Shown here: piece by piece, positions 15,023 to 20,000 of the stretch
How the letters are laid out: every line of letters starts with the position of its first letter
Numbering within the stretch: the stretch's first letter is position 1
IMG/VR virus record: IMGVR_UViG_2687453603_000006
From: an uncultured virus (IMG/VR IMGVR_UViG_2687453603_000006)
Taxonomy: Duplodnaviria; Heunggongvirae; Uroviricota; Caudoviricetes
Reading direction: 5' to 3' (one strand)
Length of the DNA: 20,000 bases
Notes under the pieces: model-generated
Seen by the model: the letters and a program-made list of their open reading frames with translations, nothing else
What the model was told of the DNA's origin: nothing
The model's database searches: none
Made by a program: the position numbers and the translations under genes

Positions 15023-16525
15023 TTGAAAACTCAAAAACAAGTCGCTGAAAGATTGCGTGCTTACGTTAACGGTACTGTTGATAGTCCATATCGAGTTAGA
15101 ACTTGGACTCATTATGATGATGATTTTGGAACAATGGAACCGGGTTGTATTGATGTTGATCGTAGCTTCCATGCTCAATGTATGGATCTCGTAGTTGACT
15201 ATTGTTTATGGATATCTGATAATCAATTCAGAATTCGTGGTAATGCAAAACAAGCTATCGACAACCCTCTTCCAAAAGGCTGGAAAATTATTCGTAATGA
15301 AAGAGCCACAGTGCCGAAACAGGGCTGGATAGGTGTTAATACAAGCACATATTATGGTCATATTTGGCTCGTTGATAAAGGTGCTACTCAAATGACTATG
15401 CCTGTTATTGAGCAAAACTGGAATTCGTTAGCGAACTTAAAACCAAAACGTAGACTTGATTACTACTATGGTTGTACTCACTTTATCGTTCCGCCAATTA
15501 GTTCAAATAATGCTATTGTGAGAGCTGCTAAGAACGTTTTACCTAGTCCTAAACCTATGAAAGTATTACTTGTAGCTGGACATGGTAAAGGTGCTTATTC
15601 AAACGATCCTGGTACAGTAAATACTGAATTAGATATTTGTGAAAGAGACTTTGTTAGACAAAAAATCGTTCCTAATGTTGCTAAGTATCTTAGACAAGCA
15701 GAAGTTAATGTACAATTGTATGGTGGTTCTACTATGAACCAAGACATGTATCAAGACACTAAATATGGTGTTAATCTTGGAGATACTAAGAGATATGGAA
15801 TGTACTGGGCTGCTCGACAAGGTTTCGATCAAATTGTCGAATTCCATTTGGACTCAGCTGGCTCACAAGCTTCTGGTGGCCATGTAATTATTGATAATAA
15901 CGTATATCAAGATAAGATTGATGAAAGACTTCATAAGGTTATTGATAAATACGTTGGTACAATTCGAGGTATAGACAAGCGTGATAACTTATTGAATGCT
16001 AACGTATCTGCCGACCTAAACCAAAATTATAGATTAGTTGAATTAGGTTTCATTACTAATAAAACTGATGTAAGAAATATCGAGAGACATCTTGAAGACT
16101 TCACTAAAGAAATGGCTGAAGCTATTGTTGGTAATGTTATCGGTAATAACTTAGGTTCTCAAGATATAAAGCCTTCTACTAAAAAAGGTAGTAAATCTAA
16201 ACCTTCTAAGAAAAAACCTAAACCTCAACAAATTGAGTGGAAGTGGTCTGGCACTTTCTACCCTAATACATTGATCAAAGTTAGAAGAAACTGGGGGCTT
16301 AACGGTGAAGAAGTTCCTAGAAAATTCTGGCTTAATGGAGAAAAAGACTGGGTATATATCCATTCAGTTATCAAAGACACTAAGAATAAATTATGGTGGG
16401 CTAAGATGACTTATCCTCAAAACAAGGAAATTAAATACTTCTATTGTGCTTTAGGTAAAATCACTGATAAAGAAGCCAAAATTAAAAAAGAAAAAGAATT
16501 ATATGGTAAAATTAAATGGAAATAA
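15023..16525 (+). CDS. Endolysin: CHAP (LysK-type) + N-acetylmuramoyl-L-alanine amidase_3 + SH3-like cell-wall-binding domain
   Basis: TTG start with AAGGAG RBS; CHAP catalytic motifs HAQCMDL, YGHI, IEQNW; amidase_3 motifs LVAGHG, ERDF, EFHLDS, LVELGFITN; Lys/Pro linker; C-terminal WKWSGTFYPNTLIKVRR...WW...YFY domain. Confidence 0.93.
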   Translation: MKTQKQVAERLRAYVNGTVDSPYRVRTWTHYDDDFGTMEPGCIDVDRSFHAQCMDLVVDYCLWISDNQFRIRGNAKQAIDNPLPKGWKIIRNERATVPKQGWIGVNTSTYYGHIWLVDKGATQMTMPVIEQNWNSLANLKPKRRLDYYYGCTHFIVPPISSNNAIVRAAKNVLPSPKPMKVLLVAGHGKGAYSNDPGTVNTELDICERDFVRQKIVPNVAKYLRQAEVNVQLYGGSTMNQDMYQDTKYGVNLGDTKRYGMYWAARQGFDQIVEFHLDSAGSQASGGHVIIDNNVYQDKIDERLHKVIDKYVGTIRGIDKRDNLLNANVSADLNQNYRLVELGFITNKTDVRNIERHLEDFTKEMAEAIVGNVIGNNLGSQDIKPSTKKGSKSKPSKKKPKPQQIEWKWSGTFYPNTLIKVRRNWGLNGEEVPRKFWLNGEKDWVYIHSVIKDTKNKLWWAKMTYPQNKEIKYFYCALGKITDKEAKIKKEKELYGKIKWK

Positions 16526-16548: not shown

Positions 16549-16591
16549 TCCCCTCTGACTATTTAAAATAGTTGGAGGGGAATTTTTTTTT
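16549..16591 (+). terminator. Intrinsic terminator ending the late operon
   Basis: TCCCCTCTGACTATT-TAA-AATAGTTGGAGGGGA stem followed by T9. Confidence 0.85.
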
Positions 16592-16600
16592 GTCTAAATT

Positions 16601-16807
16601 TTATACTAGCTTTAAATTTAATTTTGTTTGAGCCATCAAACAATTTGTTACTATTGTGCTTGTCTGTAAATCAGTTAGTCTTATAGTGTAAGAACCTTCT
16701 TCAGTCCTTATAACGATCATTACATCTTCAATTTTTCCGTCTCGATATCTGGAATAATTAGTCCTTGTGTAGCTTTACCAATAAAATTTACGTTCATTTC
16801 CATTCAA
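16601..16807 (-). pseudogene. Small disrupted ORF (68 codons, internal TAA) or two coupled mini-ORFs
   Basis: GGGAGG RBS (16820-16815) 7 nt before TTG 16807; in-frame TAA at 16777-16775, then the frame stays open to TAA 16603-16601. Alternative: ATG 16803 (27 aa) whose TAA overlaps ATG 16720 (39 aa). Confidence 0.45.
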
Positions 16808-17091
16808 ACATTATCCTCCCGTTGTATTGTAAACGTAGTAAAAATGTGAAACTACTTGTAACTATGTAAACCCTTCTTGATACTTAGTTGATAACCCTTA
16901 ACTTTTATTTAAGAGTTGGAGTAAGAATTAATAAATACATAAATAGGTAATTTAACTTAGTCTAAAGAAAAATGTTTATATAATTACTAAAAAACTTAAT
17001 TGTGTTTCCCAATTATTTACACTCTTAAATGCATAATTTGAAATCGCTAAATAAATATATCACGAATATAAAAAATATAGTATAAGTAACA

Positions 17092-17108
17092 TTTACATAA
17101 AATTTACA
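17092..17108 (-). promoter_or_regulatory. WalR-type (OmpR family) direct repeat TGTAAA-N5-TGTAAA
   Basis: Minus strand reads TGTAAA TTTTA TGTAAA, an exact fit to TGTWAH-N5-TGTWAH; an extended -10-like TGnTATATT lies downstream at 17062-17054. AT-rich context lowers significance. Confidence 0.4.
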
Positions 17109-17185
17109 AAAGTAACTTATTTGTAGCAATTGTGTGTATTTTATAGAATTTTTTTATATTCCCTAAACATTTCTTTTTTAAACAT

Positions 17186-17362
17186 TTATATTTCTTTAAA
17201 TTGTATATTAAAATCTTTTGTACTTTTTATAACTATTGTTCTCCCCTCTTCATTCGCTCTAAGAACTGTGACTATATCAAAAATATTTTCATTAGAGAAT
17301 TGTAGCAGCTCCTCTTCTGTGAAATCTCTCTCACCTTCAATTACAATTCGATATTTTTTCAT
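17186..17362 (-). CDS. Small hypothetical protein (58 aa, MKKYRIVIEGERDFTEEELLQFSNENIFDIVTVLRANEEGRTIVIKSTKDFNIQFKEI), not in ORF track
   Basis: AAAGGATGATG RBS, ATG 17362, TAA 17188-17186; own promoter and SOS box directly upstream. Confidence 0.8.
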   Translation of the reverse strand: MKKYRIVIEGERDFTEEELLQFSNENIFDIVTVLRANEEGRTIVIKSTKDFNIQFKEI

Positions 17363-17394
17363 AGTACATCATCCTTTCGCAAAATTTAAATATG

Positions 17395-17443
17395 AGAACG
17401 TTTGTTCGGTATTTATATTAAGGTAATTTTAGAACGTTGTCAA
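17395..17443 (-). promoter_or_regulatory. Sigma-A promoter with LexA (SOS/Cheo) box
   Basis: -35 TTGACA (17443-17438), 17-nt spacer, -10 TAATAT (17420-17415), then CGAACAAACGTTCT (17408-17395) matching Firmicute GAAC-N4-GTTC at the predicted +1. Confidence 0.8.
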
Positions 17444-17444
17444 C

Positions 17445-17482
17445 AAAAATAAAAAGCTCAATGGTAAATAACCAAAGAGCTT
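17445..17482 (-). terminator. Intrinsic terminator of the 549-aa gene
   Basis: Minus strand AAGCTCTTTGGT-TATTT-ACCATTGAGCTT followed by TTTATTTTT, ~15 nt after the TAG. Confidence 0.7.
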
Positions 17483-17496
17483 ACTAGATATTTGTT

Positions 17497-19146
17497 CTAC
17501 TTCGACTTATCTTCCACTAAATATTCTACTGGAATTTTGCTAAGTATTAAATCTTTTGACAGCTGTTCGTCATATTTAATAATAATTAGTTTCACATCAT
17601 TTTGATCGCAAAGTTGCTGTTTATGCTTATCTCTAGCTTGTTGTTTCTTTAAACTTTCTTCTCCTCCCCAATGCTCAACTGGTTTATAGTGTTGAATACC
17701 ATTATACTCAAAGCCTAGTTTTAATTCTGGTATATAAATATCTATTTCTAAACCTTCAAGGAAATTTGGTCTACAATGACGTTCGCACTCATAACCTTCA
17801 AATATATCTTCGACAATTCTAAACATCATAGTTTCAGATATCCAACCTTCTCCTATCTTAGCTACACCATATTCTTCTCTAAGAATATTTTCAGCTTCTT
17901 TTCCATAGATATCGTTATCTAAGTCGTTTTCTATTTGCACTTGATCAATATACCAACCATGATACTTCCTAAATTTACTATCATTACTTGAATATATACG
18001 ATTAGGAGTTGTTTTATTACATCTAAAGCAGATATTATCTTTGAATTGAATTTCATTAATTATGTCAGTATTTTCATCATTTAGATATGCTTTAATCACT
18101 GGAGGTAAACATTCTTTTACATTTAGTTTATTTACTTTTAATTTATGTAAAGCTTTTTTAGTACAACTACACATATATGGTTCTTGATCAAATGAGTCTC
18201 TAAATGCAAAGAATTTTGTCTGATGGTCTAATGGATAATAAGTTATATGTGCTCTATTGTCATCATTTAATACAAAATCAAAACTATCTCCATAGCTATA
18301 ATTTAATATTCTCTTAATTCTATTTTCGGTATGTGATACAAATTCTCTGTATTCGATTAAATATTTTTTGTATATCTTTCCTTCTAAATAAATTTCTTTA
18401 TTTTTCCAATTCTTAATTAAAAAGAATATATTTTCAATGTCATCTCTATGTTCAAGATATTCCATATCGCTAGTTACTTTTATACTATATTTATTATCTT
18501 CAAATTCAAAGTTGTCGAAACGCTTCATTAAATTGATCGCAGTCTCGAAATACTTCGATTTACTTTTAGATATTGTAATTCTTAATAAATCTTTTTCTTT
18601 ATTCAATTCGTCTAATTCATCTATGTTAGGTTTGTATTGATTAGGGTTATCTAACAAAAGTCCGTCTAATGCTCCATAATATTTACCATTTATCTCAACT
18701 TCCTCAAAACGATCATTCAAAGGATGTAGCTGTGGTCTATTATCTACAAGAACCTCTTCAATTATATTATGAATATGATTTTGAGTATCTCTACCTCTCT
18801 CAATGACATTAATAATTTCTTTAGAGTCCTTTATAGTTCCAATACTGATATAATTTGTGAAACTTCTTTTAGTATCACCATAAGTTATTCTAATAGGTTT
18901 GTTTCCTAAAGTTTCATCTAACTCTACTTGAATAACATCTTTAAAAGGAATTTTATATGCGAAATCTTCTTCTTGATTTACCATATAAATTGAATTAATT
19001 GATAAATAAAATGAACAGTATATATTTCTGTATGTGCCATCGAAGGTATACTCAAAGTTACAAACAGTTTTATAATAAATTTCAACATTGCCAAACTTCT
19101 TTTCAAGATATTCATCGTTCATTTTTAAATCAGAATAAAAGTCCAT
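17497..19146 (-). CDS. Multidomain protein with C-terminal Vsr/DUF559-like PD-(D/E)xK endonuclease domain, Cys motifs and PH-like N-terminus
   Basis: AGGAG RBS; C-terminal WISE...LEIDIYIPELKLGFEYNGIQHY...QARDKHKQQLCDQNDVKLIIIKY fits the Vsr-like E-x-[DN]-G-x-x-H and RDxxK pattern; CSC and CFRC motifs; KIPFKDVIQVEL...IRITYG resembles bacterial PH domains. Confidence 0.75.
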   Translation of the reverse strand: MDFYSDLKMNDEYLEKKFGNVEIYYKTVCNFEYTFDGTYRNIYCSFYLSINSIYMVNQEEDFAYKIPFKDVIQVELDETLGNKPIRITYGDTKRSFTNYISIGTIKDSKEIINVIERGRDTQNHIHNIIEEVLVDNRPQLHPLNDRFEEVEINGKYYGALDGLLLDNPNQYKPNIDELDELNKEKDLLRITISKSKSKYFETAINLMKRFDNFEFEDNKYSIKVTSDMEYLEHRDDIENIFFLIKNWKNKEIYLEGKIYKKYLIEYREFVSHTENRIKRILNYSYGDSFDFVLNDDNRAHITYYPLDHQTKFFAFRDSFDQEPYMCSCTKKALHKLKVNKLNVKECLPPVIKAYLNDENTDIINEIQFKDNICFRCNKTTPNRIYSSNDSKFRKYHGWYIDQVQIENDLDNDIYGKEAENILREEYGVAKIGEGWISETMMFRIVEDIFEGYECERHCRPNFLEGLEIDIYIPELKLGFEYNGIQHYKPVEHWGGEESLKKQQARDKHKQQLCDQNDVKLIIIKYDEQLSKDLILSKIPVEYLVEDKSK

Positions 19147-19214
19147 TCCTATTTCTCCTAATTTATTAATTTAATTATCTTATATTTTACAATACTTTTA
19201 ATAATAATAAATAC

Positions 19215-19254
19215 AAAAAATAACCCCTTGATTAAGAAATCAAAGAGTTATTTT
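19215..19254 (-). terminator. Intrinsic terminator downstream of sasX/sesI
   Basis: Minus strand AAAATAACTCTTTGATT-loop-AATCAAGGGGTTATTTTTT. Confidence 0.75.
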
Positions 19255-19298: not shown

Positions 19299-19913
19299 TT
19301 ATTTAGAATTAGAAGTACGTCTAAATGCTAATAATGAACCAGCTGCTAATAATACTGAAGCAATGATTGTTACTAAACCAGAATTAGATTGTCCGCCTGT
19401 TTCTGGTAACGCTTTTGTTGTTGTTTGAGCTTCGTTAGTTTGAGTTGATTGAGTTGATTGTGTATTGTTTTCTTGAGTAGAAACATTGTTATCAGTTGTA
19501 GCAGTAGTGTTGTTATTTGTTGCTGCTTGAGTATTGTCAGTGCTTTGTGTATTGTTTGGTGCGTCAATTGTTAATACATTGTTTGCGTCTCTAGGAGTCT
19601 GAGCTTCAATACGTCCATCTTTATAAACTTTTGCAGCACCTACACCATTGTCTTTTTCACCAGAAAAAATAACAGTATAATAGTCACCATTGTCTTTTAC
19701 TCCATTGTCTTTATCAGTAACGCCACCACCGTGTCCTCCAATTGATACAGAACCCGCTTCAGTATATTTTGAACCAATAGCATTTTTAGCATAATCTCTA
19801 ACATTTGAGTCATTTACATAATCAGCTGCATGTGCATTATGTGTAGCTCCTACACCTGTAAATAATAATGCTCCCGCTAATGTAGTTGTTGCTAAAACTT
19901 TAGATTTTTTCAT
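19299..19913 (-). CDS. sasX: LPXTG cell-wall-anchored surface protein SasX/SesI family (204 aa)
   Basis: True start ATG 19913 with GGGAGG RBS (not 20000); signal peptide MKKSKVLATTTLAGALLFTGVGATHNAHA, Thr/Asn/Gln-rich stalk, LPETG, TM helix, RR tail. Recognised as sasX/sesI from sequence and SPbeta-like context; the allele (sasX, sesI or shsA) cannot be resolved by eye. Confidence 0.85.
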   Translation of the reverse strand: MKKSKVLATTTLAGALLFTGVGATHNAHAADYVNDSNVRDYAKNAIGSKYTEAGSVSIGGHGGGVTDKDNGVKDNGDYYTVIFSGEKDNGVGAAKVYKDGRIEAQTPRDANNVLTIDAPNNTQSTDNTQAATNNNTTATTDNNVSTQENNTQSTQSTQTNEAQTTTKALPETGGQSNSGLVTIIASVLLAAGSLLAFRRTSNSK

Positions 19914-19973
19914 TTTTATTTTCCTCCCAAAAAATAATATGTAATCACGGTTTAAATATTCAACCCGTGTATA

Positions 19974-19992
19974 ATTAATGATAAACATTAGA
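19974..19992. promoter_or_regulatory. Candidate Fur box upstream of sasX/sesI
   Basis: TAATGATAAACATTA (19976-19990) matches 14 of the 15 central bases of GATAATGATAATCATTATC and contains a minus-strand TATCAT -10 candidate. Confidence 0.5.
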
Positions 19993-20000
19993 GTGGACAT

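Follow-up and report, generated by a model that had tools for sequence, protein, structure and literature searches.

A prophage-borne protein of Staphylococcus with a PH-like domain, a four-cysteine module and a Vsr-type nuclease fold: a candidate phage-exclusion enzyme

An uninterrupted open reading frame (ORF) of 549 codons plus stop, starting with ATG, lies on the minus strand at 17497..19146 of the window, a stretch of 20,000 nucleotides from an SPbeta-like Staphylococcus prophage (IMG/VR record IMGVR_UViG_2687453603_000006). Our analysis suggests that this ORF, here called the nuclease gene, encodes a four-module DNA endonuclease and is accessory cargo of the prophage; its most likely role, to which we give an even chance, is that of an exclusion or defence enzyme that is expressed in the lysogen and cuts incoming phage DNA. 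A lysogen-expressed enzyme attacking incoming DNA is favoured because the putative N-terminal adaptor is shared with a validated defence nuclease, because relatives occupy positions linked to repressors and integrases, and because of the orientation of the gene. Lysogenic expression, the DNA substrate, zinc binding, the defence role and the adaptor role are what we infer from the results described below.

A nuclease fold with intact catalytic residues is firmly predicted at the C-terminus. In an AlphaFold model made with an alignment of 93 relatives (predicted local distance difference test score, pLDDT, 92.2; predicted template-modelling score, pTM, 0.79), residues 435-543 matched Escherichia coli Vsr (1cw0_A; Z 9.7, root mean square deviation (rmsd) 3.2, 104 residues aligned) and the homing endonuclease I-Bth0305I (3r3p_B; Z 9.6, rmsd 3.1, 94 of 98 residues aligned, 20% identity) in VIA comparisons, and the C-terminal third of the protein matched PHROG families 9084, 7140 and 3339, which are annotated as homing or intron nucleases. 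The motifs S437-E438, E467-I-D469-I-Y, F479-E480-Y-N-G-I-Q-H486 and R505-D506-K-H-K509 contain the catalytic set E438, D469, E480, H486, D506 and K509, and the cysteine motifs C326-S-C328 and C373-F-R-C376 lie ahead of them. A first-pass annotation, made from the letters of the window, had pointed to the CSC, CFRC and nuclease motifs; all are present in the translation and coincide with invariant columns of the family alignment. The same annotation had proposed a per-domain AlphaFold and Foldseek check of its nuclease, and the matches to Vsr and I-Bth0305I bear the nuclease out. Its label "Vsr/DUF559-type" was right for the Vsr-like fold and the catalytic residues, but neither Pfam DUF559 (PF04480) nor Pfam Vsr (PF03852) matched the protein at E ≤ 1. 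The whole protein had no match in Pfam (E ≤ 1) or NCBIfam, and searches of PDB sequences with the protein and with a profile of the 93 sequences gave nothing below E 0.09 and recovered neither 3R3P nor 1CW0.

The EDxHD family has been described as a Vsr-like domain with conserved Glu, Asp, His and Asp residues, joined to N-terminal NUMOD and helix-turn-helix (HTH) modules (Taylor et al., PMC3239194; what we take from this paper, and below from PMC4081097 and PMC13190303, comes from part of each text). The window protein has the catalytic domain and residues of this family and, with no Pfam family matching at E ≤ 1, not the NUMOD/HTH modules; the correspondence of its residues with those of I-Bth0305I follows from the fold match and not from residue-by-residue mapping. 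Cleavage would be performed by a C-terminal Vsr/EDxHD-type domain, in which E438, D469, H486 and D506 would support metal-dependent hydrolysis of the phosphodiester bond. Vsr-like cleavage domains are also known in the restriction enzymes AbaSI/PvuRts1I and BpuSI (PMC4081097), and because AbaSI/PvuRts1I are restriction enzymes, the fold is one that is used for defence. Compared by description, AbaSI/PvuRts1I resemble the window protein in joining a Vsr-like cleavage domain to a separate recognition domain in a single protein, there a one-protein restriction enzyme, but their nuclease is N-terminal and their recognition domain is SRA-like (PMC4081097).

The N-terminal region was predicted to adopt a pleckstrin homology (PH)-like fold, in agreement with the first-pass annotation. 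Residues 25-120 of the model form the beta-sandwich with a C-terminal helix cap that characterizes such folds. PH domains filled the Foldseek list of PDB structures (E about 4e-4, template-modelling score up to 0.70; 1eaz, E 5e-4, score 0.70), VIA returned Z values of about 10 (7yis_A, Z 10.3, rmsd 3.0, 96 residues aligned), and PH, phosphotyrosine-binding (PTB) and Ran-binding domains together occupied both lists, while residues 1-130 matched no Pfam bPH family at E ≤ 0.01. The pLDDT of the model is lower at residues 121-140. Residues 140-420, modelled separately, gave a pLDDT of 91.5 and no Foldseek match at E ≤ 0.001. Within this segment the ferredoxin-like domain (approximately residues 185-258) had weak fold matches (Z ≤ 4.3) to Cas2, VapD and ACT-like ferredoxin folds; the four-cysteine (Cys4) module had no fold match in this search and no Pfam match. 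A phrog_559 match spans residues 196-542. Judged from the sequence, the four cysteines probably form a zinc site, and the ferredoxin-like and Cys4 modules might hold DNA or select the target, the loop between the cysteine pairs being the fastest-changing part of the protein.

The conservation pattern indicates which of these modules belong to the wider family. The four cysteines, together with E438, D469, E480, H486, D506 and K509, were invariant in all 18 sequences of a first alignment (A1). In the alignment of 93 sequences, C373, C376, D469, E480, H486 and D506 were again invariant (93/93), and C326, C328, E438 and K509 were conserved in at least 90%. At E ≤ 0.001, HMMER searches returned 12,125 cluster representatives, a number that fell to 2,574 at E ≤ 1e-10 and to 222 at E ≤ 1e-30; the N-terminal 185 residues were covered by one other cluster only, from Staphylococcus. 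When one genome per species was scanned, 395 relatives turned up, distributed over Bacillota, Bacteroidota, Chloroflexota, Planctomycetota, candidate phyla radiation (CPR) groups, Proteobacteria and archaea, and the length of protein ahead of the Cys4-nuclease core ranged from 0 to 347 residues. The Cys4 module and the nuclease are the conserved core, with the PH-like domain and the linker found in Staphylococcus forms only. Two of the 93 relatives had weak DUF2726 matches and none matched DUF559. When the Cys4 module alone was used in a tblastn search of phages, only four SPbeta-like records were matched, and the module is therefore too divergent for BLAST.

Every module is under strong purifying selection. 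Three pairwise comparisons with SPbeta-like alleles gave a ratio of nonsynonymous to synonymous substitution rates (dN/dS) of 0.10-0.11 for the whole gene, 0.04-0.06 for the nuclease and about 0.1 for the PH-like domain. The proteins encoded by 11 close alleles were all 544-549 amino acids long, except for one 305-residue fragment on a 1-kb contig, and the most variable stretch among them (residues 321-369, mean pairwise identity 0.73-0.80) lies between the cysteine pairs.

The evidence that links the protein to a known defence nuclease comes from its N-terminus. In a survey of Staphylococcaceae, a 608-amino-acid protein of another Staphylococcus species (L088) matched residues 12-141 of the window protein. 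This protein carries DUF4041 and T5orf172 domains and matched the PADLOC PD-Lambda-1 family with an E-value of 1.2e-121 over its residues 156-606. Its extra N-terminal segment of about 120 residues was 26% identical to residues 18-121 of the window protein (BLASTP E 2e-9), and a profile of the PH-like domain aligned with the N-termini of staphylococcal DUF4041 + T5orf172 proteins in hhalign (97.3%, E 2.2e-11). By these sequence comparisons the PH-like domain is homologous to the N-termini of staphylococcal PD-Lambda-1/SNIPE homologues, and this homology is what is new here. SNIPE, built from a PD-lambda-1 clone, was reported to be a membrane-anchored nuclease that cuts phage DNA during injection and that becomes toxic when the anchor is removed; the N-terminal region is highly variable among its homologues, and some homologues that lack transmembrane segments have N-terminal PH domains, one of which was aligned to GRK2 (2BCJ) (Saxton et al., PMC13190303). 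The 2BCJ structure is also in the Foldseek list of the PH-like domain studied here. Supplementary Table 3 of that paper lists N-terminal domains and may already include the staphylococcal forms (PMC13190303).

The likeness to SNIPE/PD-Lambda-1 extends to the overall build: in each, one protein joins a variable N-terminal adaptor and a middle domain to a conserved nuclease at the C-terminus (PMC13190303). In contrast to SNIPE, the window protein contains no DUF4041, GIY-YIG/T5orf172 or MUG113 domain and has no PADLOC PD-Lambda-1 match; its nuclease is of the Vsr-type PD-(D/E)xK fold, and its adaptor is acidic. The PH-like adaptor would set the location or the partner of the enzyme and, by analogy with SNIPE's N-terminal region, might keep the nuclease off the chromosome.

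The profile of the PH-like domain matched in 13 of 199 genomes of the order. Four of the 13 matches were homologues of the window protein and four were DUF4041 + T5orf172 proteins; the rest were one protein each with a SAP domain, a HIRAN domain and a partial RNase_T exonuclease, and two short ORFs consisting of the domain alone. This spread over several effectors implies that the PH-like domain is a portable N-terminal module for DNA-acting effectors. In the three single fusions (SAP, 517 amino acids; HIRAN, 339 amino acids; partial RNase_T exonuclease, 269 amino acids) the domain is followed by a coiled coil, and the domain-only ORFs are 140 and 150 amino acids long; the PH-like proteins of loci L146-L153 come from Staphylococcus genomes G073, G110, G070, G074, G024, G025, G100 and G029. 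The fusions and domain-only ORFs look like an uncharacterised set of DNA-acting proteins with a common adaptor. One could envisage a wider scheme in which SNIPE-like "entry-site" nucleases have a second branch, of Vsr type, defined by the window protein, and a portable staphylococcal adaptor places at least five effectors (a GIY-YIG nuclease, a Vsr nuclease, and SAP, HIRAN and DEDD exonuclease proteins) where phage DNA enters. We regard this scheme as unlikely. If it is true, self and non-self would be told apart by position and not by sequence or modification, and an SPbeta-like prophage would exclude rival phages by this means.

The position of the nuclease gene supports the view that it is stand-alone, monocistronic cargo at the prophage end that is proximal to the integrase. 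Its position is between the endolysin gene (15023-16525, plus strand; CHAP, Amidase_3 and SH3b_P2 domains) and a gene for a sasX/sesI-like LPXTG surface protein (19299-20000, minus strand), and the endolysin, holin and structural genes are all on the strand opposite to it. The sequence AGGAG is found 8 nucleotides ahead of the ATG. The features of the gene and its flanks are collected in Table 1.

Table 1. Modules of the nuclease gene product and candidate signals around the gene (positions in the window)
Feature	Coordinates	Strand	Basis and remarks
Whole gene	17497..19146	-	ORF list; full-length match to phrog_27771, function unknown
PH-like adaptor domain, residues 1-125	18772..19146	-	Fold search, homology; acidic, isoelectric point (pI) 4.9
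Linker with beta-hairpin, residues 126-184	18595..18771	-	Secondary structure of the model; long Staphylococcus forms only
Ferredoxin-like alpha/beta domain, residues 185-300	18247..18594	-	Model; present in part of the wider family
Four-cysteine module, residues 301-414 (C326, C328, C373, C376)	17905..18246	-	Conservation; family-defining
Vsr/EDxHD-type PD-(D/E)xK endonuclease domain, residues 415-549	17500..17904	-	Fold, PHROGs, motifs
Promoter-like site TTAAAA-16-GATAAT	19174..19201	-	Upstream of nuclease gene; consensus scan only, 9/12 matches
Terminator-like hairpin closing the upstream LPXTG gene	19217..19254	-	Terminator scan
Terminator-like hairpin and U-run just past the nuclease gene stop codon	~17445..17482	-	RNA fold

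Promoter-like sites were no more frequent in the window than in shuffled sequences in the consensus scan. The terminator scan found two sites against 0.6 expected; it requires three G-C pairs and overlooked the hairpin behind the nuclease gene, which folded at -18.2 kcal/mol (z -4.77), a value that none of 200 shuffles equalled. The first-pass annotation had pictured a monocistronic gene that opposes the late genes, is bracketed by terminators and lies between the endolysin gene and sasX, and the promoter-like site and the two hairpins agree with this picture. It had also called the gene very AT-rich; the gene is AT-richer than the window, but only modestly so, since its G+C content is 27.3% compared with 31.1%. 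Four SPbeta-like phage records, from S. epidermidis and S. haemolyticus, share 92-93% identity with the region and keep its gene order (endolysin, two small ORFs, nuclease gene, LPXTG gene, serine integrase).

An IMG/VR provirus with a 96% identical allele (L092:4188-7647) has the serine integrase gene followed by the nuclease gene across a 275-nucleotide gap, with no sasX/sesI-like LPXTG gene between them. From this arrangement we take the surface-protein gene to be variable cargo and the nuclease gene to be the more constant component. Downstream of the nuclease gene in the window lies an acidic 58-residue ORF (17186-17362, minus strand) that belongs to phrog_23230 (function unknown); a promoter-like site close to consensus, TTGACA-17-TAATAT, accompanies it at 17443-17415. 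Among the loci examined, this ORF accompanies the nuclease gene only in SPbeta-like ones (L001, L002, L092) and is absent beside the S. pragensis homologue; it is thus not a conserved partner of the nuclease, and the search gave no evidence of an immunity or antitoxin partner.

We examined whether relatives of the gene occupy comparable positions. Viral contigs contained 22 relatives, of which 10 loci were annotated, nine of them outside the SPbeta-like group. A CI/Xre-type regulator was found within three ORFs in six of these nine loci, and in three of the six it stood immediately upstream on the same strand, separated from the relative by 24 nucleotides in one locus and by 3 in another and overlapping it by 4 in the third. 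Integrases were near the relatives in loci L095 and L099, and five of six non-SPbeta proviral loci with E ≤ 1e-36 placed the relative within 3 kb of the end of the provirus contig. Genome loci were inspected in two sets, 24 with long flanks and 51 further ones. In the first set, five relatives were in integrative-element or lysogeny modules, one was among phage head genes, and seven had defence- or toxin-type genes within three ORFs (RES, AbiU2 + MNT/HEPN, ParE, PDC-M48B, FRG/PDC-S15, CARF and GmrSD). In the second set, the immediate neighbour was a defence-type gene in seven loci (RES, FRG, AbiU2, HSDR_N, Mrr_cat, TIR_2 and methylase-ParB) and a recombinase, excisionase or homing-type gene in five. 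Homologues near defence genes had been named by the first-pass annotation as a test of its proposal, and both sets contain them.

Some of these loci have features of their own. FRG-domain (PADLOC PDC-S15) genes directly adjoin the relatives in L026 and L056, as do AbiU2 genes in L040 and L041; the members of each pair may be copies of one element. A mobile element common to several metagenome-assembled genomes (MAGs) of Clostridia carries a 159-residue ORF with a hydrophobic N-terminus that abuts the start of the relative (L008, L012, L015) and an ORF of 81-83 residues that overlaps its stop (L011, L012, L015, L017, L019). Neither ORF matched a Pfam family. They could be partners of the relative, and the 159-residue protein could be a membrane anchor in trans; these loci are 90-100% identical and thus not independent. 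In a Formosa MAG (L059:4942-6735), a 597-residue protein with six DUF4379 treble-clef zinc-finger repeats is encoded immediately downstream of the relative, and the BFVD fold list shows this type of repeat fused to Vsr-like nucleases in giant-virus proteins.

Several results weigh against an enzyme of defence, some of them against a SNIPE-like mode of action in particular. PADLOC-DB 2.0 (library dated 2023) contained no family matching the protein at E ≤ 1. The pI of the PH-like domain was 4.2-4.9 in all seven alleles compared with 5.9-9.3 in the SNIPE-type domains, and so acidic a domain makes binding to anionic lipids doubtful; a protein partner is the more likely ligand of the adaptor. The window protein has no transmembrane segment (best 19-residue hydropathy 0.59), and because a transmembrane-like segment was present in only 3 of the 93 relatives, membrane anchoring is not a trait of the family. 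The acidic domain and the rarity of such segments argue against a straightforward transfer of the membrane model of SNIPE to the window protein. About six of the 24 loci of the first set had housekeeping neighbours only, relatives among housekeeping genes including L004, L037, L043 and L072, and the neighbour counts, which lack a matched background, include some loci that are copies of one element. The RNA data do not speak for lysogenic expression either. The window stretch was present in 14 RNA runs from four studies, and RNA-library contigs covered the nuclease gene in 4/4 runs (four studies); they covered the late structural genes equally, and for this reason they are no evidence of expression in the lysogen. 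In two of the four runs the contigs were 13-49 kb long, so that DNA carry-over or induction is possible. A separate contig in run X6, of the greatest depth in that run (121), spans 16584-19155 and matches the borders of the predicted unit, which is no more than a hint of a transcription unit of the nuclease gene. In the contigs of three runs, one base is missing at 16583, in the T-run past the endolysin terminator, and contigs of three runs have C in place of T at 17393; both are probably strain differences.

The mobility of the gene also counts against the defence enzyme: a mobile unit of one gene is what one would expect of a homing gene no less than of a defence islet. In the S. petrasii group, a 1.6-kb insertion made up of the full-length homologue alone separates an acyltransferase from a PTS gene. 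It was present in 3 of 20 Staphylococcus loci, the two genes being 124-559 nucleotides apart in 12 of the other 17, and the acyltransferase gene is core (81/81 Staphylococcus genomes). Two copies in one haloarchaeon and one in another genus share the gene alone, about 1.2 kb at 85% identity within unrelated flanks. A gene of the nuclease clade, phiCTC2A_29, lies beside a terminase gene, and Terranova_079, a genuine intron-encoded homing endonuclease of the clade, is inside the terminase gene. These observations suit a free-standing, selfish EDxHD-type homing endonuclease, which would cut gene-less alleles in related phages or chromosomes near its own insertion site and be copied by repair; the host would gain nothing, and the N-terminal modules would be the apparatus of DNA recognition. 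Homing is a live rival because the nuclease belongs with the Vsr-like "EDxHD" homing-endonuclease lineage, as the fold match to I-Bth0305I and the homing and intron nuclease PHROGs indicate. The same membership qualifies the statement of the first-pass annotation that the protein is no recognised named system. The protein also matched the intron-encoded VSR endonucleases of Staphylococcus Twort-like phages in sequence (E 4e-7), a relative (L023) adjoins a GIY-YIG/NUMOD1 gene, and the long homologue was sporadic, being found in 4 of 113 Staphylococcaceae genomes. In genome G104 (C1:1151807-1153433; L143/L125) the chromosomal homologue appears split, matching in two overlapping pieces in different frames (residues 1-249 and 239-544), as is frequent in decaying selfish genes; a frameshift in a pseudogene or an error of assembly accounts for this.

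The comparison with known homing enzymes shows both sides of the matter. I-Bth0305I and the EDxHD family (PDB 3R3P; PMC3239194) share with the window protein the C-terminal catalytic fold, the set of acidic, His and Asp residues, a modular build with a C-terminal nuclease and the occurrence of phage-borne as well as free-standing forms. The window protein, however, has PH-like, ferredoxin-like and Cys4 modules in place of NUMOD/HTH, has no HMMER link to 3R3P, and is encoded in the lysogeny/cargo region by a gene that is not associated with an intron or intein. Likewise, the Twort-like VSR endonuclease Terranova_079 comes from a phage of the same host genus and conserves E438, D469, E480, H486, D506 and K509, but it is 312 amino acids long, lies in a group I intron within the gene for the terminase large subunit, has repeated CxxC zinc-ribbon-type N-terminal units, and lacks both the C-x-C...C-x-x-C module and the PH-like domain. 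No treble-clef repeats of known family members occur in the window protein. A promoter-like site and terminators of its own flank the nuclease gene, which lies at the prophage's lysogeny end and is transcribed in the direction opposite to the lytic genes; among relatives, shared orientation with CI-type repressors recurs, and homing genes of the lytic cycle would not be expected there. The spread of the 395 relatives over the chromosomes of cellular organisms, in many phyla and in archaea, the PH-like domain common to SNIPE-type defence proteins and the purifying selection on every module further reduce the case for homing, and we consider it unlikely, although homing and defence are not mutually exclusive. 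We found no empty SPbeta-like site that would bear on the question: an integrase scan of viral contigs gave four loci, three of which end at the integrase, and only integrases of 38-40% identity were detected in Staphylococcaceae genomes (3/113).

The first-pass annotation had proposed a nuclease that is activated when its N-terminal domains detect a phage protein. In the form of abortive infection, the PH-like and Cys modules would bind a phage protein and release the nuclease, and indiscriminate destruction of DNA would lead to death or arrest of the cell. The multi-domain build, in which the N-terminus varies while the nuclease is conserved, would suit such a mechanism, as would the location of the most variable stretch within the Cys module and the AbiU2, RES, HEPN and ParE genes next to some relatives, and a constitutive nuclease would require restraint. 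Pfam and PADLOC, however, detected no ATPase, STAND or nucleotide-signal sensor domain, and the one characterised family that shares the adaptor acts through direct cleavage confined in space and not through abortive infection (PMC13190303). Moreover, nearly all relatives lack the PH-like domain, which for this reason is not a general switch of the family. Activation by sensing thus found no specific support, the SNIPE precedent being a localising adaptor with direct cleavage (PMC13190303), and as a general scheme it is contradicted by the restriction of the PH-like domain and linker to Staphylococcus forms; we judge abortive infection to be quite improbable.

A role in housekeeping or in the phage life cycle, as a Vsr-like mismatch nickase, a helper of recombination or packaging, or a domesticated DNA-binding regulator, is very unlikely in our estimation. 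The Vsr fold itself and the terminase or head genes beside some relatives could be taken in its favour, and the catalytic domain does superimpose on E. coli Vsr (PDB 1CW0). Unlike Vsr, the window protein has about 400 additional N-terminal residues, no Pfam Vsr match and cysteines that lie outside the catalytic domain, the zinc site of Vsr being in an internal loop (PMC3239194); no cytosine methylase adjoins the nuclease gene within the window that could serve as a partner. The gene is absent from most Staphylococcus genomes, and the invariance of the catalytic residues means that the protein is not a dead regulator. Weak language-model leads to DUF723, DUF4379 and CapR-type phage proteins in the ESM Atlas are retained as no more than leads, as the best score (0.77) was in the range of shuffled controls. 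The lysogen-expressed enzyme directed at incoming phage DNA remains the reading that we prefer.

One further observation concerns the reference SPbeta-like phage (NC_029119; L001:3248-4385), in which IS3-family transposase fragments occupy sequence between the endolysin gene and a structural gene of the virion.

The literature listings that we searched contained nothing on the nuclease gene and nothing that treats the Cys4 + Vsr family as a system of defence. The Cys4 + Vsr-type core defines a very large family (2,574 clusters at E ≤ 1e-10) that has no model in Pfam or in the defence database, and the shared PH-like adaptor provides a concrete and testable link between this family and the newly described SNIPE mechanism. 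If the protein proves to be a homing endonuclease, the EDxHD family would gain a new architecture of DNA recognition. Should it serve in defence, a phage-exclusion gene would sit next to sasX/sesI in the large, clinically relevant SPbeta-like prophages of S. epidermidis, S. haemolyticus and S. aureus, and this would matter for phage therapy and for the range of phages able to transduce DNA into such strains.

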